DNA from: Gemmatimonadaceae bacterium | GTDB taxonomy: Bacteria; Gemmatimonadota; Gemmatimonadetes; Gemmatimonadales; Gemmatimonadaceae | Length of the DNA: 64,000 bases | Direction: 5' to 3' | Assembly: GCA_045803545.1 (NCBI GenBank) | Contig: JBJMOW010000005.1 | Span: 512,001-576,000 of the forward strand | Shown here: positions 12,801-43,936 of the stretch, piece after piece | How positions within the stretch are numbered: the stretch's first letter is position 1 | Layout of the letters: every line of letters starts with the position of its first letter | The notes under the pieces: model-generated | Database searches by the model: none | Seen by the model: the letters and a program-made list of their open reading frames with translations, nothing else | Told to the model about the DNA's origin: nothing | Position numbers and translations under genes: made by a program

Positions 12801-13915
12801 CACGCGATTGCGCGTCCAGTGACTACGGTGCCCGAGCGATCTTTCAAAATTGCCGAGGCTTGGCTTGTCCCTCCAACGGTAATGGTGGATGGAGTCAGAC
12901 TCACTTCCACCGACGCAACGGGAACGGGAGTGACAGTTATCGCCACGCTCGAACTCACGCCGCCTACGGTTGCCGTTATTGTCGCTGAACCGGGGCTGAC
13001 CGCCGAGAGCATCCCGTCAGGTGTTACTGTCGCTACCGTGTTTGCGGCTATCGCCCAGGTGACGGTGCGATTGATGAGAACAGCTCCACCTGCATCTGTC
13101 GCCACTGCCACCAGTTGTTCATGATCGCCGACGACAAGAGATGGAATTACGTCAGGATGATCCGGCGGTCCCCTGATCGCGACCTGGGCAACCGGCTCGG
13201 GAAGCAATACAGCGTATGTACTGAAATGAGAGATGTCGCCCGTTACTATGTGATTGGTGAGGTCGACACTTCCTGTAGTAATCGGCTGCCAACCCGCGGT
13301 TGCTCCAGAGTAACGCAGTTGCAGGGCTGCTTCTTCCGTTCCAGCAGGGAGCTTCTTCGGATCGTATTTGATTTTGAGCGTGACGGGTTTGGCGAAGGAT
13401 GTCCCCGTCGGCCCGAAGTCAAATGCAGTGCCCTGCACAACTTTCGAGTCGCTTCCGAAACCACTCGACGGAGTAACGGTGACGTCAGTGGTGGCGTCTA
13501 CGGCCTGGGCAGGAACCAGAAGTTGGATTACGCCCGACGCCGCGCTGAGCGTCGTCCCGGCGGTTGTAACGACGCCGCCATCGACTACAGTGACATTCGC
13601 AGACGCGCTCTTGCCGTCGGCAGATGCCGTGACGGTGGCTGCCCCCGGCGTGACTGCCGTCACCATGCCGGACGGTGATACTGTCGCAATCGCGATGTCC
13701 GATGTCGCCCACGAGATCGGGCGCGACAATGGCCGACCGTCCCGGTCTTTAGCCGTAGCAGTCAGCTGCAGGGTAGCCGCAGGCACGAGCGACATTCCGA
13801 CTTGCGACAAGTCTATGAGGTCGGTCGTTGGCGGCGGCGCTGTCGGACTTTCTCCGCAGGACCCGATCGTCCACCCAAGTGCGATAGATCCGATCGTGCG
13901 GTACAATCTTTTCAT
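848..13915 (-). CDS. Giant (4355 aa) predicted surface lipoprotein: Big_2, ZU5-like domain, 42 further Big_2 repeats, TIM-barrel glycoside-hydrolase-like domain (DUF6298/DUF4038-like) and a C-terminal beta domain (putative collagen-binding type)
   Basis: Uninterrupted ORF with lipobox-like signal MKRLYRTIGSIALGWTIGS|C. Repeats of about 85-97 aa with consensus PVATVTV...KDANGN.L.GR.V.WSS.N.AVATV..GLVTAV..GTATITATSEG (43 counted by hand). C-terminus has YLTGSHTW, NHNFFRL, YEISNES, DTDH and VEWFNP motifs. Confidence 0.9.
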   Translation of the reverse strand: MKRLYRTIGSIALGWTIGSCGESPTAPPPTTDLIDLSQVGMSLVPAATLQLTATAKDRDGRPLSRPISWATSDIAIATVSPSGMVTAVTPGAATVTASADGKSASANVTVVDGGVVTTAGTTLSAASGVIQLLVPAQAVDATTDVTVTPSSGFGSDSKVVQGTAFDFGPTGTSFAKPVTLKIKYDPKKLPAGTEEAALQLRYSGATAGWQPITTGSVDLTNHIVTGDISHFSTYAVLLPEPVAQVAIRGPPDHPDVIPSLVVGDHEQLVAVATDAGGAVLINRTVTWAIAANTVATVTPDGMLSAVSPGSATITATVGGVSSSVAITVTPVPVASVEVSLTPSTITVGGTSQASAILKDRSGTVVTGRAIAWQSDNGGVATVDGTTGVVTALAPGSATISATSEGQRSTATITVVPVPVASVTLALSAGSITAVGTTQATATVFDANGGTLTGRAVTFASDNESVATVSSSGLVTAVAEGTAHITATSEGKTGSANIAVTAAPVATVSVSLAASSISAVGTTQATATFQDSKGRALTGRTAAWSSDNTAVATVSSTGAVTAVAIGTAHITATSEGQTGSAALTVTDAPVASVTVTPGSASVVEGATQPLTATIKDAEDRALTGRTVVWTSSNTSVATVDANGLVTAHGAGTATITATAEGVGSAASITVSLAPVASVTVSLAETSINAIGTTQATVATLDANGAALNGRAVIWASDNTAVATVSGTGVITAESEGTARITATSEGKTGSATLSVMQAPVASVSVSLAASSITAVGSTQASAELKDAKGRTLSGRTVIWNSDNHATATVSSTGAVTAVASGTAHIVASSEGQTGSMALTVTDAPVAAVAVTPASPTVVQGSTQTLTATLKDGQNRVVTGRTVTWSSNTATVATVDASGLVTAHAAGSAIITATSEGISGTASITVTLAPVASVAISLTASSIEVGQTTTASAVLRDANNNELSGRDVTWSSNNDAVATVDANGVVSGHAVGTATITGTSEGKSAGATITVVPVSVASVTVSLAQSSITAVGTTQASATTFDANSGTLTGRSVSWASDNTSVATVSGTGVVTAESEGTAHVTATSEGKIGSATLTVTAAPVASVSVSLASSSINAVQTTQATATLLDARGRTLTGRVVTWSTSDATVATADANGLVTAHATGTATISATSEVVSRSATLTVTPPPVATVTVTPPSASLVLGISAEEQLTAITADANGGTLSGRIITWNSSNTGVATVDVNGLVTPLGAGSATISATSEGKSGTSSITVSLAPVATVTVSLNPTSISAVGTSQANATTLDANGHTLSGRLVTWSSSNAVVATVDANTGWVTAVASGTASITATSEGTIGSATLTVTPAPVATVTVSPPSATLQLVATPTQQLTAVTKDANGNILAGRAASWRSSNTAVATVDANGLVNAVGVGAATITATSETKTGTSSITVNAAPVATVSLSAPMTPMILGNTQVLTAAPKDANGNALSGRAVNWISSNPAVLSVSAPSSVSTSTGATITVTAVGIGTATITATSETAPAATTPSIAVDPIPVATVTVTPATTTLVLSITPTQQLSAVTKDANGNVLPARTVTWSSSNPAIATVNTSGLVTGVAAGSATVTATSEAQSGTSSVTVSVPPVATLTLFAPATPMIVGSSQVLTAVPKDANNNILSGRTVNWVSSNPAVLSVSAAASVSTGSGATITVTAAAVGTATITANSEAAPAATTPSITVNPVPVATVTVTPPSASLVLGITPTQQLSAVTKDANGNVLNGRTVNWSSNNTAAASVSANGLVTGVAAGSAIITAVSEGQSGTSAITVSVAPVATVTVALSPTSITAVGSSQATATTLDANNNVLTGRVVTWSSTNTAVATVDAITGLIAPVAPGTASITATSEGKSDSATLTVTPAPVASVTLTPPSANLVLGITPTQQLTAVTKDAQGNVLTGRVVTWSSSNTNFVNVDASGLASAVAAGSATITATSEGQSGTSSINVALAPVATVTVTLNPTSINAVQTSQATASTFDGNGNALTGRVVSWTSSNTAVATVNPNSGLVTAVAPGTTTLTATSEGKTGNATLTVTEAPVATVTVSLASSSINATETTQATAMLLDARGRPLTGRVVIWSSSNTAIATVDPNTGLVTAIAPGTANITATSEGETDSAVLTVTAASVAGVTVTPSSTTLVLGITPTQQLTAATKDANGNTLTGRVVTWSSNNNAVATVDPNTGLVTAVSAGGATITATSEGKTGTSTITVNLAPVATVTVTPSSANLVLGITPTQQLAAVAKDANGNVLAGRTVSWSSSDNSIATVGANGLVTAVAAGAATITASSEGQSGTSAITVTVAPVTTVDVSLNPMSITAVGTSQATAVTRDANGNVLTGRAITWSSSNTAVATVDVNTGMVTAVALGTASITATSEGKSGSATLTVTPAPVASVVVSPSSAVLQLLVTPTHQLTAVTKDANGNTLTGRLVTWSSSNTAVAQVDANGLATAVGAGTATITATSETKTGTSSITVNPTPVAAVTLSSPTTPMIVGGTQVLTATPRDANGSALSGRTVTWVSSNPAMLTVSAPTSLSTASGATITITALGVGVATITATSESAPAATTPSISVNPIPVATVAVTPASASLVLGIAPTQQLTAVTKDANGNTLTGRVVTWSSNNTAVATVDANGLVTAQTAGSATITATSEGRAGTASITVSLAPVATVAVTLNPTSITAVGTSQATATTRDANGIILTGRVVTWNSSNPAVATVNSNTGLVTAVAVGTASITGTSESQAGSATLTVTPAPVATVTVTPASATLQLVVTPTQQLTAVPKDVNGTVLTGRLVTWSSGNTAVATVDANGLVTAVSAGTTTITATSETKTGTSSITVNPAPVATVVLSPPTTPMIVSATQTLTATPKDANGNTLSGRTVAWVSSNPAVLTVSNASSVSSATGATITVTSVGVGAATITATSESAPAATTPTITVNPIPVATVTTTPSSATLVLGISPTQQLTAVTQDANGNTLTGRVVSWSSNNTAVATVDANGLVTAVSAGSATVTATSEGKTGTSSITVNLAPVATVTVALNPASITAVGTSQATATTRDANGNVLTGRAVTWSSSNTAVVTVNASTGFVTAGAVGTASITGTSEGQTGSATITVTPAPVATVTVTPSSASLVLGITPTQQLTAVTKDTNGNTLSGRVVTWASSNTAVATVGGNGLVAAQAAGTATITATSETKTGTSSITVSVAPVTTVTLSSASTPMTVGSTQVLIATPKDANGNVLPGRTVNWISSNSAVLTVSAASSLSSSTGATITVTALGVGTAAITATSETAPAATTPSITVNPIPVATVTVTPASAGLVLGITPTQQLAAVTKDANGNVLTGRTVTWSSSNNSVATVGADGLVTAVAAGGATIAAASEGQSGTSAITVTLAPVATVNVALNPMSITAVGTSQANATTLDANGNNLTGRAVTWSSDNLAIATVDANTGLVTAVAVGTANINAMSEGKTGSATLTVTQAPVATVSVSLAASSITAVGTTQATATLQDSKGRTLSGRSIVWTSDNTAAATVSSAGAVTAVATGTAHITATSEGQTGSATLTVTDAPVASVVVSPASANLVEGATQQLTTALTDAQVRPLTGRTVVWTSNNDASATVDANGLVTAHTAGTATITATSEGVSGTSSITVTQVPVASVTVSLAQGSISAVGTTQATATTLDATGGTLTGRSVVWSSDNEGVATVSNTGIVTAEAVGTAHITATSEGQTGSSILTVTAAPVASVTVTIAQGSITAVASTQATAELKDSRNRVLTGRTIVWASDDHAIATVSSTGIVTAVAEGTAHITATSEGQTGSATLTVTQAPVATVTVSPSAPSILVGATEQLTITLKDAQGRVLTGRVVTWSSDNTAAATVSGTGLVTAVAAGAATITATSETKTGTSIVTVTAATTTATLLHRSTRNPRYFENATGQIIYLTGSHTWSTLRDNGTVDPPAAFNYTAYLDFLTQRNHNFFRLYAWEQDRWTSEYANDYWFSPSAYARTGPGVALDGKPKFDVSQFNQAYFDRMRQRVIEAGSRGIYVSVMLFNGWSVTTKPGATANNPWNGHPFNSANNINGIDGDTNGDGSGLESQTLTIPSVTALQEAYVRRVIDAVGDLDNVLYEISNESDGSSRDWQYHMIQVIRDYEATKAKRHPVGMTAMWPNGSDTDLYNSDADWISIAGTLHTPVTANGSKVLVTDTDHICGVCGDVEWVWKSFVKGHNPILMDGYDGAAIGVGAEDYDVNDPVWEAIRKNMGYTLSYAQRMDMANAVPHGDLVLSELTGYALAKPGEQYLVYINSEGAVTLNLSALTGTLNVEWFNPATGVATPAGTIAGGPSVQLIAPFSGPAVLFLH
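2180..13195 (-). repeat. Intragenic tandem array of 42 diverged Big_2-coding repeats (about 255-290 bp units)
   Basis: Visible in the translation. Units are diverged at nucleotide level and fall into recurring subtypes. Confidence 0.9.
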
Positions 13916-14099: not shown

Positions 14100-15749
14100 T
14101 CAGTGATGCAGATACACGGTCGCCAGGCCGGAGAATGGAGCGGTTAGAGTGACGTGGGTCCCGCCTGCGGCCTTGCCACCATCCACTGTCACAGCGGTGG
14201 ACGGATTGAACCATTCGACGACAAAACTGCCCGTCGTGCCGCTCAGATCCAGATCCAGATTCCCGCCGCCAGGAAGAACCGCGAGATATTCGCTGCCCGC
14301 ATCTGCAAGGCAATAACCGCTTGACGCGAGGTCACCGCGTGGGACCGCGCGCGCCAGGTTCATCCGCATCGCGTAACTCCTCACGTATCCCATGTTTTTG
14401 CGAATGTCCTCCCACTTTGGATCGGCAGGATTGTACGCCGCATCTGACACCCCGGGGCTATTGTCGTAGCCGTCCATCAACAGCGTATTGTGCCCTCGAA
14501 CGAACGCTTTCCAGACCCAGGCGGCGTCTCCACAAATTCCGCACAAATGGTCTGTATCAGAGAGGTCTACTTTCTTTCCATCAGCTATCGCTGGGTTGCT
14601 GACGTCGCCATTCATCGACACCCAATCCGCTGCGCTGTTGAGAACCTCGGCGTTAGTTCCGGGCCAGGGAATCGTCATGCCGATGGGATGCTGCTTCGGT
14701 TTCTGCGCCTCATACGACCGAAGGAAATCGATCAGGTGGTACTGCCAGGCATCGCCGGACGGATCGCTCTCGTTGCTGATTTCGTAAATGACGTTGTCCT
14801 GGTCATTGACAGCGTCGACGACTGCTTTCACATAGGCTTCCTGCAAAGCCGTGATCGCCGGCATCGTTAGGGTCTGCGTTTCGCGACCTGACGCATCGTT
14901 GTTCGGGTCACCGTTGATCCCGTTGATGTTGTTTGCGGTGTTAAACGGGTGGGCCAGCCACGGGTTCGCCCTCGCATTCCCTGGCTTAGTCTCGACACTC
15001 CAGCCATTGAACAGCATTACAGACACGTAGATTCCGCGCGTTCCGGCGTCGATTACGCGTTGGCGCAGTCGTGCGAAATACTGGGGGTTGAGTTTCGTCA
15101 GGTCGAACTTGAGACCGCCGTCCGCGGCCGCCCCGGGCCCCGTTCTCTCATAGAGAGTCGGCGAGAACCAATGACTGTAACTGACTTCGTCACTCCAACG
15201 CGCCTGCTCCTGAAGCCAGAGTCTAGTGAAGTTGTGATTGTGCTGTTGCAGAAAATTCAGGTACGCGATGTTGTCGAACGCTGGCGGAGGATTCGTCGTT
15301 CCATCATCCTGGACGTTCTTCCAATAGTGCGAACCGGTAAGGTAGACAATCCGACCCGCGGGATCTGCGAAATACCTCGGGTTGTCTGTGCTCACGTGCA
15401 AAGGGCCTGTGGCGGGAGCCGACGCCGCTGATACCGTCAGCGTCGTCGAATCGCTGAATCCGCTCGCTTGTACGCGGATTTTCACGAGGCCGGCACTTAC
15501 TCCAACTGCGGTCCCGAAGTCATTAATCGTGGCCACCGCGGCGTTGCTGCTTTGCCAGCTGACATCACTAATACTGTGACTGGTGCCGTTTTCAAATGAC
15601 CCGTTCGCGCGGAACACCACGGTTTCGCCAATTCGGATGGTGGCAGCGATGGGCGCAATCGTGACGGCGTTCAAGCGAATTTGATCGCTCGTGCTGCTGC
15701 AGGCGGCGAGCACCAGCAATGCGATGGTGCTTAGCCCAGGACTTCTCAA
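14100..15749 (-). CDS. Predicted lipoprotein with one Big_2 domain plus the same GH-like and C-terminal beta domains as the giant protein (short paralogue)
   Basis: Lipobox LLVLAA|C and one Big_2 unit. YLTGSHYW, NHNFTRLW, YEISNES, DTDHLCGICG and VEWFNP align with the C-terminus of the 4355-aa protein. Confidence 0.85.
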   Translation of the reverse strand: MRSPGLSTIALLVLAACSSTSDQIRLNAVTIAPIAATIRIGETVVFRANGSFENGTSHSISDVSWQSSNAAVATINDFGTAVGVSAGLVKIRVQASGFSDSTTLTVSAASAPATGPLHVSTDNPRYFADPAGRIVYLTGSHYWKNVQDDGTTNPPPAFDNIAYLNFLQQHNHNFTRLWLQEQARWSDEVSYSHWFSPTLYERTGPGAAADGGLKFDLTKLNPQYFARLRQRVIDAGTRGIYVSVMLFNGWSVETKPGNARANPWLAHPFNTANNINGINGDPNNDASGRETQTLTMPAITALQEAYVKAVVDAVNDQDNVIYEISNESDPSGDAWQYHLIDFLRSYEAQKPKQHPIGMTIPWPGTNAEVLNSAADWVSMNGDVSNPAIADGKKVDLSDTDHLCGICGDAAWVWKAFVRGHNTLLMDGYDNSPGVSDAAYNPADPKWEDIRKNMGYVRSYAMRMNLARAVPRGDLASSGYCLADAGSEYLAVLPGGGNLDLDLSGTTGSFVVEWFNPSTAVTVDGGKAAGGTHVTLTAPFSGLATVYLHH

Positions 15750-25943: not shown

Positions 25944-27743
25944 TCAAGGAATTCGAGCGGTCGCTATTCGGATGTTGTCGACCCACATGGACTGATCGAC
26001 GGGCGACCCATCGCCAATGTAGGGGGCGATCAGGAACTGATTGAACTGAAGGCCTGGATGCGCGGCGGTCCGGAAAAGAATGTCGTGGCGGTCAATGATC
26101 AGGGTACCGTTGAACCAGTACTGCATAACGCCATCGGCCTGGCCGACACCGTTCACTATCGTGTTGAGCTGGAAGTACGCCTCGACAAAGTTCCAGTCGT
26201 TTTTGTAGCCTGGTCCTGGATTGGGCTGGAACACCACCGGCCCGCGAAGCTGTTTGTCGTTGTAGTAATTCGAGCCGTCGTCGAAGCATTCAGACGGCAT
26301 GTTGGTTTCTACCATACCATTGCATCCGCCGGTCGATCGATCCTCGGTGACTCCCACCAAGTTGTGCGGTAGCGCGCCGTAGCTGTAATTGATCGACTTG
26401 TTATCCTGCATCGCCAGGCGCGGGATGCCACCATTCTGATAGTTCTGCTCGACGTACAGGACCATCCACCCGAACGACGGACCATCGTAATCGCCGTCGA
26501 GGGTGCTCATGATCTGAAACTCGTGCGGATGGTAGAGATGGTTCGAACCGACCCAGTTTGCACTGTACTTGACGTAGTAGCTCAAATACACCGAGCTCGT
26601 CGCGGCAAATTTGTGGCGCTGTGAGCCGCCAGTTGTAGGCGTTGTCGCGCCAGGGAGGAAGTGATACTGCGCCGACGCAGTGCTACCGGTGATGTGCTCC
26701 GCCGTTGAGATGACCACGCTCGTGTTGTCGTACCAACCACGCGAAGCGAGGCTCGCGTCCTCGAAATTCTCCTGGAAGAGGAGTGTGCCACCCGGCGGGG
26801 GTGGCGGGGGTGGGGGTGGAGGTGCCGCGTTTACCGTGACAGTAGATGTGCCGGACTTGCCGCCGGTGCTCGCAGTGATCGTAGCTGACCCTGCGGCAAC
26901 ACCAGTCACAACGCCCGCTGATGTTACGGTCGCGACGCTTGGCTTGCCGCTCGACCAGGTAATAGTTTGGCCGCTCATGACGTTGCCCTGAGCGTCTTTG
27001 ACAGTCGCGCTGAGTGTCACAGTGGCGCCGATATCGACTTGTGCGCTGGCCGGCGAAACCGTGACCGTCGTGACTACCGGAGGTGGCGGAGGTGCCTGGG
27101 TTACAGTGAGTGATGCCGTTCCCGACTTGCCTGCACACGTTGCCGTTATGGTTGCTGTCCCTGCGGACACGCCACTCGCAACACCGTTTGCGTTCACGGT
27201 TGCAACAGAGAGAGCGCTGCTAGACCATGTGACGGTTTGGCCCGTCATAACAGAGCCCTGCGCATCCTTGACCGTGGCGCTTAACGCGACCGTCGCTCCT
27301 GTTTGCACCGTTGGTGTGGCCGGCGAAACACTTACTGTCGCTACTGTTTGTGGTGGAGGCGATGGCGCCATCACCTTGACGTGTGCAGTTCCACTTTTGC
27401 CTTTCGTGGACGCACTTATCGTCACGTCTCCAGCCGCCACACCTGCAACGATCCCGGTGGCACTCACTGCTGCAAGCGATTGGTCGCTGCTGGACCAAGA
27501 CAAGGTTTGATCGGTCATGACCGTGCCGCTTTGATCCTTGACTTCCGCGGAGAGCGCGGTAGTTGTGCCCACATCTATCGATGTGGTTGAAGGCGTCACG
27601 TTGATCGTTGTTACGACAGGAGTGGGGTCTGGCGTCGGTTCCGTAGTCGTGCCGCCCGCTTCGCCGCAAACCCACAAAATCGGAAGTGCGAACACCCACG
27701 AGCTTCGGACTACGCGACGAGCAATTGCTCTTGTATTTAACAT
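25944..27743 (-). CDS. Probable lipoprotein: 3 Big_2 repeats with poly-Pro linkers and a C-terminal beta-jelly-roll domain resembling polysaccharide-lyase/lectin folds
   Basis: SD GGGAG before ATG 27743. Signal ending ILWV|C (atypical lipobox). Three Big_2 units and a P10 linker. C-terminal LFQENFED...VYLSYYVKY...DGVMQYWFNG...MWVDNIRIA. Confidence 0.75.
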   Translation of the reverse strand: MLNTRAIARRVVRSSWVFALPILWVCGEAGGTTTEPTPDPTPVVTTINVTPSTTSIDVGTTTALSAEVKDQSGTVMTDQTLSWSSSDQSLAAVSATGIVAGVAAGDVTISASTKGKSGTAHVKVMAPSPPPQTVATVSVSPATPTVQTGATVALSATVKDAQGSVMTGQTVTWSSSALSVATVNANGVASGVSAGTATITATCAGKSGTASLTVTQAPPPPPVVTTVTVSPASAQVDIGATVTLSATVKDAQGNVMSGQTITWSSGKPSVATVTSAGVVTGVAAGSATITASTGGKSGTSTVTVNAAPPPPPPPPPPGGTLLFQENFEDASLASRGWYDNTSVVISTAEHITGSTASAQYHFLPGATTPTTGGSQRHKFAATSSVYLSYYVKYSANWVGSNHLYHPHEFQIMSTLDGDYDGPSFGWMVLYVEQNYQNGGIPRLAMQDNKSINYSYGALPHNLVGVTEDRSTGGCNGMVETNMPSECFDDGSNYYNDKQLRGPVVFQPNPGPGYKNDWNFVEAYFQLNTIVNGVGQADGVMQYWFNGTLIIDRHDILFRTAAHPGLQFNQFLIAPYIGDGSPVDQSMWVDNIRIATARIP

Positions 27744-27789
27744 GCGAACTCCCGCATTTCGTTCGTAGTGGTGGCGGAAGTGCCGTGAC

Positions 27790-27809
27790 AACAAAATGCC
27801 GCCGCGGCA
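27790..27809 (-). terminator. Riboswitch expression-platform terminator
   Basis: Minus strand TGCCG-CGG-CGGCA followed by TTTTGTT, between the aptamer and the start codon. Confidence 0.55.
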
Positions 27810-27826
27810 CCGATACCTGTCGGATT

Positions 27827-27910
27827 CGCTGGCGGCTCGGCTGGCGTAGCGTGAGCTTTAGCCCCGTGGCTCTGCGACACCGTCTTTCGACGGCTTTGCT
27901 CTGAGCAGCG
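27827..27910 (-). ncRNA. GEMM-I riboswitch (c-di-GMP-I class) with A at position 20, the c-AMP-GMP-type signature
   Basis: Minus strand CGCUG-CUCAG-A-GCAAA-GCCGUC-GAAA-GACGGU-GUC-GC-AGA-GCCACGG-GGCUAA-AGC-UCAC-GCU-AC-GCC-AG-CCG-AGCCG-C-CAGCG. It contains P1, P2 with GAAA tetraloop, and P3 with a tetraloop receptor and AG bulge. Confidence 0.85.
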
Positions 27911-31976: not shown

Positions 31977-33092
31977 ATGTCGACAGCGTACGAACTTCTC
32001 CGCGAAGAGTTGCGGTCGCACCCTCGAGTATGGGTGGTTACGGGTGTCGCGGGGTTCATTGGATCTAACCTGCTGCAGGAGCTTTTGGCCCTGGGGCAAA
32101 CTGTCGTCGGATTGGACAACTTTTCAACGGGTCATCGGGCGAACCTCGACGATGCACTCGTTGGACCGCTCGAGGGTTCGGCCAATTTCAGGATGTTAGA
32201 AGGCGACATTCGCGACGTTCAGACTTGTCGGGACGCGTGCGAGTCGGCGGATTATGTGCTTCACCACGCGGCGCTTGGATCGGTACCGTGGTCCATGGAC
32301 GATCCGCTACGCACGAATGCAGTCAACGTCGATGGCTTTGTAAATATGCTGGTCGCGGCAAAGGACGCCGGGGTGAGACGGTTCGTTTATGCATCTTCGA
32401 GTGCCGTCTATGGAGACACCCCGGCGTATCCTCAAATTGAACAGACATTGGGCCGGCCGTTGTCACCCTACGCCGCGAGCAAGAGCGCGAATGAAACGTA
32501 TGCGCTCGCGTTTGAAATGAGCTACGGGCTGCAGACGATCGGTTTGCGCTACTTCAACGTTTTCGGACGCCGGCAGGATCCCACTGGCGCTTATGCTGCG
32601 GTTATCCCGCGTTGGATCGCCGCCCTGCTGCGTGGCGAGCGGTGCCGTATTTTCGGTGACGGAGAAACCACCCGGGATTTCTGCTACATCGCGAATGTGG
32701 TTCAAGCCAATCTCCTCGCAGCGACTGCAGAGAAGGACGAGGCGACGTGCGACACCTATAACATCGCATGTGCCGAATCCGTGACGCTCAATCAGTTGTT
32801 CGCAATGATGCGCGACGGACTGGCAGATCGAGACGCGCGGTTCACCGATGCTCGACCACTATACGACGGTTTTCGTCCGGGTGACATCCGATTTTCTTGT
32901 GCATCAATTGACAAAGCGCGCAGCAAGCTCCGCTACTCGCCCACGCATGACGTCTCGTCGGGACTCGCCGACGCGCTTGACTGGTATGTCGAGAAGGCGG
33001 AGGCTTGGAATGCGGACGCAGTCTCGAGACGGAACGGGCACCTTCCGATCTCGACCGTAGGACAAATGCCGGCCCCCCAGGTTGCAGTATGA
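31977..33092 (+). CDS. UDP-N-acetylglucosamine 4-epimerase (WbpP/TviC-like SDR)
   Basis: GVAGFIGSNL, HHAALGSVP, YASSSAVYG, PLSPYAASK and LRYFNVFG.RQDP.GAYAAVIP motifs. GGAGG upstream of GTG 31974/ATG 31977. Confidence 0.88.
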   Translation: MSTAYELLREELRSHPRVWVVTGVAGFIGSNLLQELLALGQTVVGLDNFSTGHRANLDDALVGPLEGSANFRMLEGDIRDVQTCRDACESADYVLHHAALGSVPWSMDDPLRTNAVNVDGFVNMLVAAKDAGVRRFVYASSSAVYGDTPAYPQIEQTLGRPLSPYAASKSANETYALAFEMSYGLQTIGLRYFNVFGRRQDPTGAYAAVIPRWIAALLRGERCRIFGDGETTRDFCYIANVVQANLLAATAEKDEATCDTYNIACAESVTLNQLFAMMRDGLADRDARFTDARPLYDGFRPGDIRFSCASIDKARSKLRYSPTHDVSSGLADALDWYVEKAEAWNADAVSRRNGHLPISTVGQMPAPQVAV

Positions 33093-34024
33093 GTGACGGG
33101 CATCCGAAGCAGAATGCGCTGGTTGGATTCAGCGATGAATGGATGCGCCGTTCAATGGAGACGGTCTTTCAGGAAAAGGGGTATCAGGTAACGCGAACCG
33201 CCTCCGGTAAGGAGGCACTCCAGCTCGCTCGTAGTGGGCGATTCGATGTGATCATCCTCGACGAACGAATCGAGCAATTGGTCGCTATAGATGTCTGCAT
33301 CGCGTTGCGCGACGATCCGTTGTTCGATCACGCCACGCCCATCGTCATCGTTTCGTCCGCGCACTCCACGTTACCAAGTCGCAGCGCTGCCTATGCCGCT
33401 GGCGCCTGGGAATACTGCCATCAGCCCGTCGATGTCGACGCACTGTTTCTGAAACTGGCCACCTTCCTGCGCGCACGGCGCGAGCTCGCCGAACACCAGG
33501 CGAAGTCGCTCATGGACCCTGCCAGCGGGTTATACACCGATTTTGGACTGCACCAACTCGCGGAGCAACTTGAAGCGCGCGCTGTGCGTAACCACGAGCC
33601 GTTCGCATGCCTGGCGTTTGCATCCGTCTCCGGCGAAGGCGATGCGCCGGCGAACCGCGACACCGCGCGAACAAGCTTCCGGGACCTTGCGCATGCCGTC
33701 CGGGAACAGGCGCGCCGGTCAGATGTCATTGCGAAACGAGGCGAGTCGCGCCTTGCGGTTCTCGCACCGGGCACGGACGCCGCAGGTGCGCGCCATCTGG
33801 TCGCACGCTTACAGCGTGAGCTCGGGGACTCCGCGAAAGGCAGTAAGGGATCCGCGGTCCGCCTGCGCGCGGGATATTGCGCCGTTTCCGACCTCGCGGC
33901 CGCAAAGCTCGAGGTCACCGAACTAGTCCACCGCGCTGAGAGCGCCCTGGCCCAGGTGGGGGGCACTAACCAAGACAGCGTGCTCAGTTTTGACGACCTA
34001 TCCCCGGGAGAATCTCGACCTTAA
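33089..34024 (+). CDS. Atypical receiver domain plus degenerate GGDEF domain (RxxD retained)
   Basis: ATG overlaps the epimerase stop (ATGA). REC motifs DVIILD and AGAWEY..QP, then DPASGLY, and RRSD followed by GESRL in place of GGDEF. Confidence 0.82.
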   Translation: MSDGHPKQNALVGFSDEWMRRSMETVFQEKGYQVTRTASGKEALQLARSGRFDVIILDERIEQLVAIDVCIALRDDPLFDHATPIVIVSSAHSTLPSRSAAYAAGAWEYCHQPVDVDALFLKLATFLRARRELAEHQAKSLMDPASGLYTDFGLHQLAEQLEARAVRNHEPFACLAFASVSGEGDAPANRDTARTSFRDLAHAVREQARRSDVIAKRGESRLAVLAPGTDAAGARHLVARLQRELGDSAKGSKGSAVRLRAGYCAVSDLAAAKLEVTELVHRAESALAQVGGTNQDSVLSFDDLSPGESRP

Positions 34025-35484: not shown

Positions 35485-35583
35485 CTCCTCCGAAAACCGG
35501 CAAAACCACCGAAAGGTGGTGACCGCAAAGCCGCGACGCTAAAGCGCCCAAGGCGCCACGCGAGTCGGGCTACCGAAGAGGAG
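35485..35583 (+). ncRNA. c-di-GMP-I (GEMM-I) riboswitch, G20/A47/C92 type, with P1 extension covering the RBS
   Basis: CUCCUC-CG-AAAACC-G-GCAAA-ACCACC-GAAA-GGUGGU-GACC-GC-AAAGCCGCGAC-GCUAAA-GCGCC-CAA-GGCGC-CACGC-GA-GUCGGGCU-ACCG-AA-GAGGAG. The ATG follows 5 nt later. Confidence 0.85.
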
Positions 35584-35588
35584 GTTCA

Positions 35589-36530
35589 ATGCAGTTGCTC
35601 GGTGAACGTCCGCCGCTGGCATTGGTCGCCTGTAGCGATGACTGGATGAGCAGAGCGCTGGAGAATGTATTCCAGCTGCGCGGGTACGTGGTTGCGCATA
35701 CACGCTCCAGCATGCAAGCCCTCGAGCTCGCGCGACTGGCCAATCATGACCTGCTCGTACTCGACGAATCGCTATCCGACATTCCCGCGCTCGAATTGTG
35801 TCGCGCAATTAAGGACAGCGCGCAATACGATCATTCGATCCCGGTAGTGATCACCGCTTCTACGCCCGCTGATCCCAGATCACGCATGATGGCTTACAGC
35901 GCTGGAGCCTGGGAATACTGCAGTCATCCCGTTGATCTCGATCCCGTTTTCACGAAGGTCGCAACCTTCCTCCGCGCACGCGGCGAATTGGTTCTTTCGC
36001 GAAGCCAGGATTTCGTCGACTCCAGCACCGGGCTTTACACGAAGTTTGGATTGCGTCAACTCGCCGGAAAGCTCAGCGCACGCGCGCAGCGAAACCACGA
36101 AGCGTTCGCCTGCGTCGCATTCGCACCGCAAGTGCAGGATCGCGAGGTGGGCTCGAGTATGTTGTGGAAGGAAAGCTCCGCTGGCTTCGCCGATGTCGCA
36201 CACGTCTTCCGCGAGCAAAGTCGCCAGTCCGATATCGTTGGGCTGGTCGGAGACTCCCGACTCGCCATTCTGGCTCCCGATACAGACGCCGCCGGCGCGC
36301 GATTGCTCGTCGCCAGACTGCAGCGCGAGCTAGATCACGCTGCTCGCGCCAAGACTATCTCGGGTCAGGTTCGTCTGCGAGTAGGCTACTCGGCGGTTCA
36401 AGACCTTGCCGAATCCAAAGTCAATGTCGCCGAGCTGGTGCACCGCGCCGAGAGTGCGCTCGATCACGCGCCGCTCCAGGGCGAGAACTCGGCGGTCGTC
36501 AGCTTCGATGATTTGCCGATCTTTGAGTGA
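35589..36530 (+). CDS. Atypical receiver domain plus degenerate GGDEF domain (paralogue of 33089-34024)
   Basis: DLLVLD, AGAWEYCSHP, DSSTGLY, and RQSD followed by GDSRL. Clearly similar to the upstream paralogue. Confidence 0.85.
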   Translation: MQLLGERPPLALVACSDDWMSRALENVFQLRGYVVAHTRSSMQALELARLANHDLLVLDESLSDIPALELCRAIKDSAQYDHSIPVVITASTPADPRSRMMAYSAGAWEYCSHPVDLDPVFTKVATFLRARGELVLSRSQDFVDSSTGLYTKFGLRQLAGKLSARAQRNHEAFACVAFAPQVQDREVGSSMLWKESSAGFADVAHVFREQSRQSDIVGLVGDSRLAILAPDTDAAGARLLVARLQRELDHAARAKTISGQVRLRVGYSAVQDLAESKVNVAELVHRAESALDHAPLQGENSAVVSFDDLPIFE

Positions 36531-36609: not shown

Positions 36610-36682
36610 TGGAGCGTACAGGGATCGAACCTGCGACCTCCTGGTTGCAAACCAGGCGCTCTCCCAGCTGAGCTAACGCCCC
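36610..36682 (-). tRNA. tRNA-Ala (anticodon TGC), CCA not encoded
   Basis: GGGGCGTTAGCTCAGCTGGGAGAGCGCCTGGTT-TGC-AACCAGGAGGTCGCAGGTTCGATCCCTGTACGCTCCA folds as a cloverleaf with the G3:U70 alanine identity pair. Confidence 0.95.
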
Positions 36683-36732: not shown

Positions 36733-38055
36733 CTACTCGTGCGCCGGAAGCGGCTCCATCGTCCGAGGATTGACCGGCACCTGCACTTCATCGCGATACG
36801 GCGAGGTCATCAACAGCACGCGCATTCGGGGAAACGCGTTTGAGAACGCGAGATAGCAGAAGCCCCAAATGCCGAGCATGCCGAGGGTGATGCCGATCTC
36901 CCAAATTCCGAACGGAATATCGTGGAGCGCTCCATAGATCGAAGGATAAACCTCGAGATAGCGCGTCATCCACAACCCGCTTACCGTGCACAGCGCGAAG
37001 AACGCCATCGTTGGCAGGAAAACTTTCGCCGCGCGCGACAGCAAGCCGAAAAATGGCAGGACGAACATCAGGCTGACGGCGATCAACGTTGGAATTCTCC
37101 AGCCTTCGATCAAACGCAACCTCGCCCAGTGCGTCTCCTCGCCCATGTTGCCGTACCAGAGCACGAGGTACTGGCCGAAGGTGATGTAGCCCCAGAAGGC
37201 AGTGAACGCGAAGCAAAGTTTGCCGAGGTCGTGGAAATGCTTGTCTTGAATGAGATCGTAGCGCCCCAGATACCGACGCCATGCCATCACGATCAGCGTC
37301 CAGCTCGCCAGCGCCGCGACCCACGCGCCCATGAAGAACCACCAACCGTACATGGTGCTCTGGAAATGGGGATCGAGCGACATCGACAAATCCCACGACA
37401 GCACGATCCAGCCAAAGCCCCACACAAACGCAAGCGCCACGGCGAGGTATCCCTGACGTGAATGCGTAGTGTGCAGCTCGCGCCGCTCGTCGCCGAAGTT
37501 GCGTCGCATGCGATCACGAATGCCGCGCGCCCAGTTGGGTCCGCCCTCCGGCAGAATTCCAACGTCGAGTCGCAGACACATGTAGATGTAGCGGAGACTC
37601 ACGAGCGTGATCAACAGGAAGATGAGGATCACGCGCGGATAGTAGAAACCAGGCCCCAGGTAAATCGCCTTTTCGCGAATTTCGGGCGTGCGGGTCGTCC
37701 ACCACAAAACGTGGTGTCTGCCGAACAAGAGAATCAGCAGCAGCAGGACGAAGGCCACGGGCAAAAACGCGACGTATCCCTCGAGAAAGCGAATGATGGG
37801 GCGAGACCAGCGCGCGGTCGTAATGCGCTGAACCGCCACGAACATCACACCCGCAGAGGAAACGCTCGCGAAGTACAGCCAGTTCGTGAGCAATGCCTGC
37901 CACGCGCGATCTGGCTTTACGAATAGGCCAATGAGGAATATGAGAGTGCCTAGGGCCGCGAGCACCAGGCAGACGGTGGTGAGAATCGGCGGTGTCGGCC
38001 GGTCAATGCCGACCAGAACTTCGTCTCGCGATGGAGCGTGTGCGTCGTGCGTCAT
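36733..38055 (-). CDS. actF: Alternative complex III membrane subunit F
   Basis: Polytopic membrane protein with MSLDPHFQST, HFHDLGKL.FAF and QYLVLWYGN..EET motifs. Last gene of the act operon. Confidence 0.85.
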   Translation of the reverse strand: MTHDAHAPSRDEVLVGIDRPTPPILTTVCLVLAALGTLIFLIGLFVKPDRAWQALLTNWLYFASVSSAGVMFVAVQRITTARWSRPIIRFLEGYVAFLPVAFVLLLLILLFGRHHVLWWTTRTPEIREKAIYLGPGFYYPRVILIFLLITLVSLRYIYMCLRLDVGILPEGGPNWARGIRDRMRRNFGDERRELHTTHSRQGYLAVALAFVWGFGWIVLSWDLSMSLDPHFQSTMYGWWFFMGAWVAALASWTLIVMAWRRYLGRYDLIQDKHFHDLGKLCFAFTAFWGYITFGQYLVLWYGNMGEETHWARLRLIEGWRIPTLIAVSLMFVLPFFGLLSRAAKVFLPTMAFFALCTVSGLWMTRYLEVYPSIYGALHDIPFGIWEIGITLGMLGIWGFCYLAFSNAFPRMRVLLMTSPYRDEVQVPVNPRTMEPLPAHE

Positions 38056-38843
38056 CGCGTCGACCTCGCTCGTGCGGTGTCTCGCGCTTTCGTTGAATCC
38101 GTCCGAGTGCGCGCCGTATCGGTCGGCGTCGTCGGCTGGAGTCCCTGTTGCGCTGCCGCCGCTGGCGACGCCTCGTTCTGCGCACCAGGCAACAGCGTGC
38201 GTGGCGGAGAGAACGGCGCCGGACGCTGTGGACCGAGCACAGTCGGGCCTGGCACCTTGTCGCCAGTCACGCCGGGCGGGGCTAGCGCTCCGACTTGAAC
38301 GGTCTTGCCGTTCACGCCCTGCAGTGCGCGGACGTAGTTCACCACGTCCCAGCGATCCATTTCCTCGATGCGGTTGTAGGGAGGCATTAAACCGCGTCCG
38401 TTCCGGATCATTCCAAAGATGTAGCCATCGGTGCGCGCCTTGGTCATGTCCGTCGTAAGGTTGATCCCTGGCATTCCGTATCTGGTCGCGGGACCATCTC
38501 CTATCGCGCGGTCACCATGACACGGCACGCAATTAATCGTGAAGTATTTCCTGCCGTTGGCAAGCGACGAATCCGAAGCCGGCGTTGGATTGCGCAGATT
38601 CGACATCGAGTCGATCGTCGCCGGAAAAGCGCCGTACGAAACCTGGAATCCCGCCACCGCGGTTCCGGTGGTCGGCACCGAGAACTGCGGATTTCCACGG
38701 GAGGGAGTGAGCGAGTCCTTCACCGGTTCCCAGGTCCACAGCGACGGCTGGCGCTTGAAGTCGGTGAACCATTCGCACGCGGTCAAGAACAACGGCGCTA
38801 CCAGTAGCAGCACGCGCGCGCGCGATCGGGCGCGACGCAACAT
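38052..38843 (-). CDS. actE: Alternative complex III monoheme cytochrome c lipoprotein subunit E
   Basis: Lipobox FLTA|C, single CVPCH and GRGLMPPY motif. Start reassigned to ATG 38843. Confidence 0.82.
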   Translation of the reverse strand: MLRRARSRARVLLLVAPLFLTACEWFTDFKRQPSLWTWEPVKDSLTPSRGNPQFSVPTTGTAVAGFQVSYGAFPATIDSMSNLRNPTPASDSSLANGRKYFTINCVPCHGDRAIGDGPATRYGMPGINLTTDMTKARTDGYIFGMIRNGRGLMPPYNRIEEMDRWDVVNYVRALQGVNGKTVQVGALAPPGVTGDKVPGPTVLGPQRPAPFSPPRTLLPGAQNEASPAAAAQQGLQPTTPTDTARTRTDSTKARDTARARSTR

Positions 38844-38847
38844 GCGA

Positions 38848-39348
38848 TCAACGTTCACGTCGCACCTCGGTCGCGCCATGCTGCTTGAGCAAATCCTCTG
38901 CTGTTCGCGCCTGCTCTGGTGGACACTCCACCCAGATCCCGTAATCACCGTGACTGAAGCGCGGGTCATATCCAACCATCATCGTCAAGCGAGGAATCCG
39001 CGCAGCAATGAACAGACCGGCAACGGTCGACAGACCGCCGATCAACACCATCACTTCAAATCCGAAAATCGTATACGGAACCCACGACGCGATTGGCTTA
39101 CCGCCGACGACCAGTGGCCAGTAGTCAGAAACCCAGATCGCGATCCAATATCCGAAAGTACATCCGAGCAGTCCGCCGATCAGTGTGAACCGACGGACGG
39201 GACTCGGTGGCGCCGCGATCGCCTCTTCCAACTCGTGACGTGGGGTCGGCGTGAAGACCCGAATCTCCCCGAGGTTTTTCTGCTTCAACGCCTCTATCGC
39301 GTCGACTGTCGAGTCGAGATCGTGGAACGCCGCCAGTACTCCGCGCAT
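38848..39348 (-). CDS. actD: Alternative complex III subunit D (DUF3341)
   Basis: FTP.P, WPLVVGGKP, FE.MVL and YDPRFS motifs, two TM segments. Confidence 0.88.
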   Translation of the reverse strand: MRGVLAAFHDLDSTVDAIEALKQKNLGEIRVFTPTPRHELEEAIAAPPSPVRRFTLIGGLLGCTFGYWIAIWVSDYWPLVVGGKPIASWVPYTIFGFEVMVLIGGLSTVAGLFIAARIPRLTMMVGYDPRFSHGDYGIWVECPPEQARTAEDLLKQHGATEVRRER

Positions 39349-40808
39349 CAGGCGAACTCTCCCGGCGTGTCAGCCTCGAACTCGAAATGACGGCCCGCTG
39401 CGTCGACGCCGTGTTCGTGTTGTTTGCCTAGCTGAGGCGGAACGATTTCCTTCACTTCAGAGATGGCGATCACGGGTAGCTGCTTGATGAATAGCAGGAA
39501 CCACATCGAGAACCAGCCGAAGCTCCCGATCAGGATCGAGTAGTCGACAATCGTCGGCCGATAACTCGTCCATTGCCACGGCTCGAATTCGTGGGACAGT
39601 GATGGCACCACGATCACGAATCGCTCGAACCACATTCCGATGTTGATCGTGAACGAGATAATGAACAGCCACGCCGCACTGCGTCTGAGCTTCTGCACGA
39701 ACAGCGAAAGCGGCAGCACCATGTTGCAGGTGTAAAGAATCGCCGAGGCCCACCACCACTGACCCCAGATGCGGTTCGCGAAGAAGTTCTGCTCGAACTC
39801 GTTGCCGCTGTACCACGCTACAAACCACTCATTCATGTATGCGCAGCCCACCACGAGCGACGTGAACAGCGCGAGCTTGGCGGCGGCATCGAGATGGTTG
39901 ATCGTGACGTAGTGCCGAACGCCGAACCACTTCCTCAATGGGATGATGATGGTGAACACCATTCCCATACCGGAGAAGATTGCGCCGGCAACGAAGTAGG
40001 GCGGGAAAATCGTGGTGTGCCAGCCCGGCGTCAGCGCCATTGCGAAGTCGAAGGACACGACCGAGTGCACCGAGAGGACCAGAGGCGTCGACAACGCCGC
40101 CAGGAATAGATAGGCTCTAGCGAAGTGTCGCCACTCGTTGTCGGTGTTTCGCCAGCCGAGCGAGAGCATGGTGAAGAGGCGCTTTCTGATCGGGCTGATA
40201 TTCTCGCGATCTCTCAACACCGCGATGTCTGGAATCAGTCCGATGTAGAGGAACGTGCTGGAGATCGTGAAGTACGTTAGAATCGCGAACACGTCCCACA
40301 CCAGCGGACTCTTGAACTGCGGCCAGATGTAGCGCCAGTTCGGATACGCTATCAGCCAGAAGAATTTCCAGGGCCGGCCGAGGTGGAGAATTGGGAACAG
40401 CGCTGCCGTCATGACCGCGAACACTGTCATTGCTTCCGCGCAACGATAAATCGTGGTTCGGAATCCCGCCCTGAACAGATATAGGATCGCCGAGATAAGT
40501 GTTCCGGCGTGGCCGATACCGATCCAGAATACGAAAGTGATGATGTACACGCCCCACATTACCGGCGGGTTGTAACCGGCAACACCGAGACCGGTGTAGA
40601 TCTGGTACATCCACGCGGTGATACCGATCAGCAACGCCAGGACCGCGACGCCGAGTCCGATGAACCATGGAAGGCTCGGGCGGAGAGTGCGAATGATTTC
40701 GCGATCGACCTGCTCGTAACTGCGGACCGCCGGCAACTGCACCGACGCGCTCGCGATGTTAGGCCGACGCGGTTCGTCCGCGGGAACTGGTTTCGTTACA
40801 GTCGCCAT
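39348..40808 (-). CDS. actC: Alternative complex III quinol-oxidising subunit C (NrfD family)
   Basis: FVFWIGIGHAGTLISAIL, HLGRPW, SPLVWD, SVHSVVSFDF, GWHTTIFPPYFVAGAIFSG and GMWFERF motifs. Confidence 0.92.
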   Translation of the reverse strand: MATVTKPVPADEPRRPNIASASVQLPAVRSYEQVDREIIRTLRPSLPWFIGLGVAVLALLIGITAWMYQIYTGLGVAGYNPPVMWGVYIITFVFWIGIGHAGTLISAILYLFRAGFRTTIYRCAEAMTVFAVMTAALFPILHLGRPWKFFWLIAYPNWRYIWPQFKSPLVWDVFAILTYFTISSTFLYIGLIPDIAVLRDRENISPIRKRLFTMLSLGWRNTDNEWRHFARAYLFLAALSTPLVLSVHSVVSFDFAMALTPGWHTTIFPPYFVAGAIFSGMGMVFTIIIPLRKWFGVRHYVTINHLDAAAKLALFTSLVVGCAYMNEWFVAWYSGNEFEQNFFANRIWGQWWWASAILYTCNMVLPLSLFVQKLRRSAAWLFIISFTINIGMWFERFVIVVPSLSHEFEPWQWTSYRPTIVDYSILIGSFGWFSMWFLLFIKQLPVIAISEVKEIVPPQLGKQHEHGVDAAGRHFEFEADTPGEFA

Positions 40809-40810
40809 TT

Positions 40811-43936
<3,126 letters not shown>

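Follow-up and report, generated by a model that had tools for sequence, protein, structure and literature searches.

The closest described relatives of the riboswitch analysed here are the GEMM-Ib switches of Geobacter, which carry A at position 20 of the aptamer. In one of them, Gs1761, J1/2 ends at A14 and P2 begins at C15 (available text of PMC6274999), and A14 corresponds to G20 of Vc2 (available text of PMC6140456). In the pilM switch the terminator overlaps the aptamer strand as in the leader described below and the outcome is an ON switch, and OFF-type GEMM-I switches such as Cd1 exist as well, as far as the accessible part of PMC9262584 describes them. For Vc2 G20A, binding at 53 nM for c-di-GMP and 120 nM for cGAMP has been given, and for Cbe 1-2 30 nM and 463 nM, respectively, in the parts of the literature available to us. 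The A20 pocket can take c-di-GMP through a protonated adenine (PMC6140456), and changes in the lower P2 are said to affect selectivity (PMC9262584), both again according to the available text. On the enzyme side, the Hypr signature consists of Ser/Thr at GacA position 348 together with a GGDEF motif, aided by a non-Arg cross-dimer residue, and the change S348D makes GacA a diguanylate cyclase (accessible part of PMC6456294). The signature of a cGAMP phosphodiesterase is an RxxQ/N HD-GYP domain (accessible part of 10.1101/600031; for further literature, likewise available in part, see PMC5888326, PMC5473149 and 10.64898/2026.01.30.702909).

Here we describe an A20 leader on the minus strand of a 64,000-nt stretch of a Gemmatimonadaceae genome (the window; contig JBJMOW010000005.1, positions 512,001 to 576,000; genome completeness 93%). 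The reading that we favour, with slightly better than even confidence, is a transcriptional ON GEMM-I riboswitch with an A20 pocket, with c-di-GMP as the likely signal in this organism, and apparently an orphan of a candidate cGAMP system of the sister family.

Results

Aptamer and ligand pocket

A complete minus-strand aptamer had been proposed in a first-pass annotation of the window, and a full-length match to the Rfam c-di-GMP-I family RF01051 bears this out (27910-27828, minus strand; 57.1 bits, gathering score 35; E 1.6e-8; covering positions 1-87 of the model). The aptamer spans 27827..27910, and the pairs of P1 and P2 were checked. P1 is built of CGCUG (27910-27906) and CAGCG (27831-27827), for which five Watson-Crick pairs are possible, and P2 carries a GAAA loop of the GNRA type (27888-27885). 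P3 is also present, and is shorter than in seven aligned orthologues. The A at 27900 lies directly 5' of the first P2 pair, and the Rfam alignment and the Gs1761 layout make it the equivalent of position 20, which reads the alpha purine of the ligand; in column 11 of RF01051 the model has G and this RNA has A. Thus A20 was found together with A47 (27873) and C92 (27832), as had been claimed. C92 pairs with the ligand guanine. G45, C46, A47 and G48 occupy 27872..27875, the pairs G21-C46 and C22-G45 close the pocket, and G48 is able to pair with C90 (27834). The features of RF01051 membership (A47, C92, P1 with G14-C93, GNRA loop) are all present. The assignments of A47 and of positions 14, 21, 46 and 93 follow what we take to be the Vc2 numbering.

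Five aptamers in the genome score above the gathering score, and the other four are G20 aptamers that run into the ribosome-binding region. The leader belongs to an A20 subtype with J1/2 GCUCAG and G48-C90, and at J1/2 and position 48 it differs from the G20 switches of the same genome. Position 48 is G in 76/80 A20 aptamers and A in 22/22 G20 aptamers. A20 itself is kept in all 15 distinct orthologous leaders while the neighbouring bases vary (C22-G45 is U-A in 4 of them), which suggests selection against G. Where orthologues were aligned, identity per column is about 83% and the structural positions do not vary. Folding z-scores for the whole region were -0.8 to -1.3. The aptamer is part of a 5' leader, and the 84 bases from its end to the ATG at 27743 hold an expression platform made up of a terminator and a U tract. 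We conclude that it is a genuine GEMM-I RNA switch, an added member of a known riboswitch class, with a probable ON logic of a known kind.

Upstream of the leader no sigma-70-like promoter was found. Just 5' of the aptamer (27944-27921, minus strand) there is a short inverted repeat, GTAGTCG ... CGACTAT, which may serve as an operator or belong, as a terminator-like hairpin, to the methyltransferase gene upstream.

Expression platform

Between the aptamer and the gene, the first-pass annotation had pointed to a small hairpin, a U tract and the complementarity of GGCGGC (27803-27798) to GCCGCC (27836-27831). All of these are where it had placed them. It had further proposed that ligand binding frees the small hairpin as a terminator and turns the gene OFF, and here folding and conservation do not support the roles given to the two hairpins. 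When the leader was folded up to the U-rich tract UUUUGUU (27790..27796; its four U are invariant in eight aligned orthologues), a large stem (27798..27836) was predicted, in which 27836-27827 pairs with 27798-27806 (A27830 bulged) around an inner hairpin at 27823-27810. This stem had a probability of 0.97-0.98 and the small hairpin 0.0; C92 was paired with G27802 at a probability of 0.98 and is thus predicted to be buried in the terminator without ligand. The large stem, the supposed antiterminator, stops one base before the U tract and includes C92 and the 3' strand of P1, so that, as a terminator, it cannot coexist with the aptamer. At -21.6 kcal/mol it is more stable than the best hairpin that can form at the U tract without the aptamer strand (-7.2 kcal/mol), and it is conserved in homologues. 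As the aptamer strand is part of the terminator, the ligand should turn the gene ON, and we consider this direction very probable. Neither an aptamer-independent terminator nor an antiterminator away from the U tract, as in an OFF switch of the Cd1 type, emerged from folding or from the homologues.

The homologues consisted of 80 distinct A20 aptamers from the collected loci, of which 78 were analysed, two lacking a recognisable 3' strand. A U tract within 65 bases was present in 65/78 leaders and absent by this rule from 13/78, and C92 was inside the preceding stem in 63 of the 65. For these 65 leaders the median stem energy was -28.1 kcal/mol, and -5.2 kcal/mol without the aptamer strand, with a hairpin of -8 kcal/mol or lower still formed without that strand in 20/65. 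In the G20 aptamers used as a control, a U tract was found in 8/22, with a median of -6.6 kcal/mol. Positions 86 and 87, which are outside the anchor used for alignment, covaried with their downstream partners among the leaders for which anchoring succeeded, 70 of 80 (50 vs 35.9 and 38 vs 28.6 Watson-Crick pairs per 70), a result reached in 0/5000 permutations and inflated by the kinship of the homologues. In a control based on pair counts, real and shuffled leaders could not be told apart (median fraction 0.26).

The small hairpin (UGCCG-CGG-CGGCA, 27797..27809) can form only when the aptamer is folded, and it is weak and poorly conserved: -5.3 to -7.4 kcal/mol here and 0 to -7.4 kcal/mol (median -4.9) across the 15 orthologous leaders, in which its 5' arm varies with no compensatory change. 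A terminator scan flagged it, with two terminator-like sites per 800 bases vs 0.8 +/- 0.9 in shuffled sequences, a difference not clearly above chance. As it forms right before the U tract in the aptamer-enforced fold, and as this copy is the strongest among the 15, read-through may be incomplete. Enforcing the aptamer costs 12 kcal/mol in stability relative to the terminated fold. In nine soil metatranscriptomes 5-17% of words were shared, and four of these yielded only short contigs, in part of other organisms, which held no signal of termination or expression.

The probable ribosome-binding site is GGGAG (27749..27753), five bases 5' of the ATG. After read-through, a longer hairpin over the U tract is possible (27810-27777, minus strand), with the ribosome site in a weak hairpin. 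The same is seen in locus L045, and it is not general.

Controlled gene and its surroundings

The controlled gene (25944..27743, minus strand) encodes a 599-aa protein with three Big_2 Ig-like domains (PF02368, E 1.5e-32). The N-termini of orthologues indicate a signal peptide with a conserved Cys, and the protein is thus a probable lipoprotein. In its predicted structure (pLDDT 73, pTM 0.80), the C-terminal part is a beta-jelly-roll like that of PL14/PL36 polysaccharide lyases. Foldseek gave alginate and glucuronan lyases as the best matches of this domain (Aly36B, E 1.1e-8, TM about 0.5, 16% identity), and searches for a lyase family in Pfam and for a sequence match in the PDB were negative. 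In the Atlas cluster of the protein PF21294 occurs in 11% of the members, which is a lead only. The earlier proposal of a surface protein with a polysaccharide-lyase-like fold thus agrees with the Big_2 domains and the jelly-roll model, the lyase role being putative. The neighbouring genes, for an ABC polysaccharide exporter, a glycosyltransferase, a deacetylase and an epimerase, are similar around the orthologues. The relatives of the protein come from 25 loci, 23 of which are labelled Gemmatimonadaceae, Gemmatimonadales or Gemmatimonadota, and across the phylum the protein encoded after an A20 leader has in most cases, as judged by eye, a signal peptide, a Cys and Ig-like repeats.

A G20 switch lies in the same locus, as do two genes for degenerate Rec-GGDEF proteins that have RxxD sites. 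The G20 aptamer (35489-35577, plus strand, 72.3 bits) ends at GAGGAG, and its 5' CCUCC can pair with this ribosome site when P1 is extended, suggesting a translational OFF switch on the degenerate Rec-GGDEF gene at 35589-36530. This gene and its paralogue at 33005-34024 flank a histidine kinase gene, and similar pairs are found near the A20 leader in two other genomes (G014 and G021). In both proteins RxxD stands five residues before the broken motif, which is presumably the layout of a c-di-GMP-binding site, and they are possible c-di-GMP receptors.

Elsewhere in the window, 848-13915 (minus strand) encodes a 4355-aa protein with 38 stretches of Big_2 and, at the C-terminus, a DUF6298-like region, probably a giant surface adhesin or glycan-active protein, and its 549-aa neighbour (14100-15749) has both domain types. 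A tRNA lies at 36610-36682, followed at 36733-43936 (minus strand) by a cluster that by eye resembles alternative complex III (molybdopterin-type/4Fe-4S subunit, NrfD-like membrane subunits, cytochrome c). Outside the window, two G20 aptamers of this genome, C2:1160275-1160365 (minus strand) and C4:491874-491960 (plus strand), precede a GH6-family gene region and another Big_2-repeat gene.

Enzymes of cyclic dinucleotide metabolism

The presence of A20 had led to the suggestion that the organism may use cGAMP, which the enzymes do not bear out. Ser/Thr at the position of GacA 348 was found in 0/9 GGDEF matches in the genome: five intact domains carry Asp there and have Arg or His as the cross-dimer residue, and the remaining domains are either degenerate or of the GGDDF kind with Asp. 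When all six frames were searched for further GGDEFs by HMM and with no filter, one degenerate candidate was gained and no Ser/Thr type. As positive controls for the DNA pattern, Ser-type GGDEFs were found with it in both other genomes tried; one of these, the bin holding locus L039, carries the label of another phylum and is possibly a mixture, and it was therefore used as a pattern control only. There were no SMODS matches (DncV-like CD-NTase) at E 0.1, with two weak NTP_transf_2 matches of 235-270 aa, and no DAC domain was found in the genome. The HD-GYP domains had RxxR in 8/9 and RxxS in 1/9, and none had RxxQ/N. Two other candidates were rejected. No DAC was found and C92 is retained, which speaks against c-di-AMP as the ligand, and the GGDDF protein of the genome has Asp at the key position, unlike a GGDDF-type Hypr enzyme of the GSU1937 kind (accessible part of PMC8835794).

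The same holds for the leader-bearing relatives. In the genus, the A20 pattern occurs in 10/109 genomes, and three more have the U22-A45 variant; the Ser-GGDEF pattern occurs in 2/109, neither with the leader, and in 0/13 of the leader-bearing genomes (the A20 and Ser tallies each include one genome flagged unpublished, G287 and G290). In five leader-bearing genomes of the organism's own family, 30 of the 43 GGDEF matches were translated, and these had Asp wherever the site was intact, with one degenerate Asn; in the three close relatives the set is of the Asp type as here, on the same 30/43 translated matches. A draw of 251 genomes from the phylum included 53 of the own family and 114 of its sister family. 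Among the 53, A20 was found in 2 (8 reversed-pattern hits in the 251 genomes give the background of this DNA pattern), Ser-GGDEF and non-Asp GGDEF in none, and RxxQ HD-GYP in 2. As this genome showed no Ser/Thr GGDEF, SMODS CD-NTase or RxxQ/N phosphodiesterase among its matches, the signal is most likely c-di-GMP, acting on an A20 pocket of the bispecific kind. Judged from sequence, we hold c-di-GMP to be the probable working ligand in this organism, though with considerable doubt, and the chief point against it is that A20 is kept in all 15 orthologous leaders. A cGAMP signal is not supported by the genes of this organism and is plausible for the A20 subtype. The caution of the first-pass annotation that A20 by itself does not fix selectivity is well placed, as natural A20 aptamers range from selective to c-di-GMP-preferring.

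Candidate cGAMP system in the sister family

The cGAMP suggestion, unsupported in this genome and genus, does find support one family away, where Ser-GGDEF and RxxQ HD-GYP proteins are found. In the sister family the A20 pattern was present in 33/114 genomes (G049 and G194 have A20 matches without the stem, and G194 was kept in the count), the Ser-type GGDEF pattern in 29/114 and the RxxQ HD-GYP pattern in 91/114. The 20 translated Ser loci all had Ser and GGDEF, with Tyr (11), His (8) or a broken site (1) at the cross-dimer position, and these enzymes carry Leu-Lys, unlike the Phe-Lys of a stricter Hypr pattern. All three of the proteins scanned for domains were MASE1-GGDEF, and MASE1-GGDEF proteins with the full Hypr signature occur at loci L221-L240. 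Non-Asp GGDEF patterns were found in 83/114 genomes, with Asn in all 30 translated. Those at L065-L092 have Asn at GacA-348, Phe/Tyr at the cross-dimer position and, by eye, a Cys-rich Fe-S-like N-terminal region, and they are family-wide like the RxxQ phosphodiesterase; these Asn-GGDEF proteins are a candidate non-canonical cyclase.

Within the sister family, genomes with A20 more often had Ser-GGDEF (20/33 vs 9/81, p 1.6e-7). Counted per genus the difference was 6/14 vs 7/25 (p 0.48), and we therefore do not claim co-evolution of the two. All nine genomes with three or more A20 copies, which belong to three genera only, have the Ser enzyme. At 11 loci (L058, L094, L096, L112, L123, L125, L135, L139, L144, L147 and L149) the leader is a tandem, in which an A20 aptamer and terminator come first and a G20 aptamer with an anti-ribosome-site hairpin follows at the ribosome site. 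The ten tandem loci that could be assigned belong to five genomes, each of which has both Ser and RxxQ matches. The order is reversed in L118 (G20, then A20), and in L022, L031 and L098 the A20 unit is repeated to give two or three in succession. Folding suggests, less strongly than for the terminators, that the bound G20 unit of a tandem may free the ribosome site, in which case the tandem would be an AND gate. No cGAMP/c-di-GMP-I pair is listed in the available part of the gate table of PMC9481103, where such tandems may count among the c-di-GMP-I doublets. Taken by itself, a cGAMP system in the sister family is on balance somewhat favoured by these signatures. In the literature searched we found no publication on such a system in Gemmatimonadales; the supplements of the founding papers of 2015-2016 may list Gemmatimonadetes.

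Discussion

According to the mechanism that we propose, without ligand the aptamer 3' strand (27836-27827), with C92 and the 3' strand of P1, would pair with CGCGGCGGC, and the resulting stem, conserved across homologues, is predicted to end at the U tract and to stop transcription. A ligand bound during transcription would keep P1 and C92 in the aptamer and block the terminator, and the gene with Ig repeats and a lyase fold would then be transcribed, a step proposed from the parallel with pilM of Geobacter. The RNA seems to be a member of a phylum-wide A20 subtype which, beside Hypr-type and RxxQ enzymes in the sister family, probably reads cGAMP there. In the present organism the leader most likely responds to c-di-GMP, which it would bind with A20 protonated, like other A20 aptamers of the bispecific type, and its threshold may be higher than that of the four G20 switches of the genome; this copy of the leader looks like an orphan of the cGAMP system of the sister family.

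An ON switch that reads 3',3'-cGAMP also here, made by a synthase without the known signatures (an Asp-type GGDEF or an unrecognised nucleotidyltransferase), is unlikely. The constancy of A20 in the orthologues, the distinctness of the subtype from the genome's G20 switches and the Ser-type GGDEFs of the A20-rich sister-family genomes speak for it. Against it stand the missing enzymes, the single A20 copy in the genome and the effect of S348D on GacA (PMC6456294, available text), and the best match here of the RxxQ Rec-HD-GYP proteins of the sister family, at about 51% identity, has RxxR at its site. In a fuller form, which we find rather unlikely, selection for cGAMP maintains A20 and the ligand comes from an unrecognised synthesis route, the locus being an outlier of a Gemmatimonadales system with MASE1 Ser-GGDEFs, possibly Fe-S Asn-GGDEFs and tandem AND gates; its part concerning an unknown synthase is about as improbable. 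In case this were true, the riboswitch would point to an unrecognised cGAMP route, and the tandem leaders with an A20 terminator and a G20 ribosome site would be cGAMP AND c-di-GMP gates.

The switch could also be weakened or vestigial, inherited or acquired with its gene from a cGAMP-using lineage, and terminate most transcripts regardless or only trim expression. The patchy occurrence in the genus, the shorter P3 and the weaker aptamer-enforced fold, which still allows the small hairpin, are in line with this, but all pocket bases and P1 are intact, relatives have a compensatory change at 22-45, and the conservation of the leader with its invariant structural positions argues further against decay, which leaves this reading quite unlikely. 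That a Hypr enzyme sits in the unassembled 7% of the genome is very unlikely: the Ser pattern does occur in 2/108 other genomes of the genus, but in none of its 13 leader-bearing genomes nor in the 53 of the family, and the close relatives have an equal Asp-type set. An OFF switch, in which the ligand frees the small hairpin as terminator, has the position of that hairpin, the terminator scan and the Cd1 precedent (available text of PMC9262584) on its side and is equally hard to believe, as the supposed antiterminator is itself the much stronger stem and ends at the same U tract, and the small hairpin, with its uncompensated 5' arm, falls to 0 to -3 kcal/mol in 5/15 orthologues and is absent in many other homologues.

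Under the preferred reading of an ON switch that most likely answers to c-di-GMP, the window warns against taking A20 as proof of cGAMP signalling. The sister family carries three cGAMP signatures and the own family only scattered A20 leaders, and these near-identical aptamers with and without the enzymes are a natural pair for studying what sets selectivity for cGAMP versus c-di-GMP. The sister family in addition yields candidate synthases (MASE1 Ser-GGDEF and Asn-GGDEF) and candidate two-ligand tandem switches.

Relation to known systems

As a member of the c-di-GMP-I family (RF01051, clan CL00126), the aptamer matches over the full length above the gathering score and differs in having A instead of G at column 11. 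With bispecific A20 aptamers such as Vc2 G20A it shares a pocket able to take c-di-GMP, as far as the available literature describes it. Unlike Vc2, which is a translational switch, it belongs to a natural, lineage-wide subtype with its own J1/2 and G48-C90. The pair under A20 is G21-C46, presumably as in Vc2. The weight of the lower P2 for selectivity reportedly goes back to Ren 2015. Of the features of GEMM-Ib, A at position 20 is present and the Gs1761-like lower P2, with C-G under A20 (C15-G40 in the available text of PMC6274999), is not.

The pathway of Hypr GGDEF (GacA) and PmxA-type RxxQ HD-GYP enzymes shares Ser348, GGDEF, Tyr/His at the cross-dimer site and the RxxQ HD-GYP with the sister-family genomes, in which the sensor domain is MASE1, unlike in the known pathway; there the signatures are read from sequence, and in the present genome they were not found. 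Unlike the Geobacter GEMM-Ib systems, this genome has a single A20 copy and was found to have neither a Ser-type GGDEF nor an RxxQ/N phosphodiesterase. In the RNA itself, however, the leader resembles the Geobacter switches (Gs1761/pgcA, pilM and Gm0970) in A20, the six-base J1/2 and C92 and, as far as the accessible accounts of them go, in a terminator made from the aptamer 3' strand, in ON logic and in the surface and polysaccharide genes downstream.
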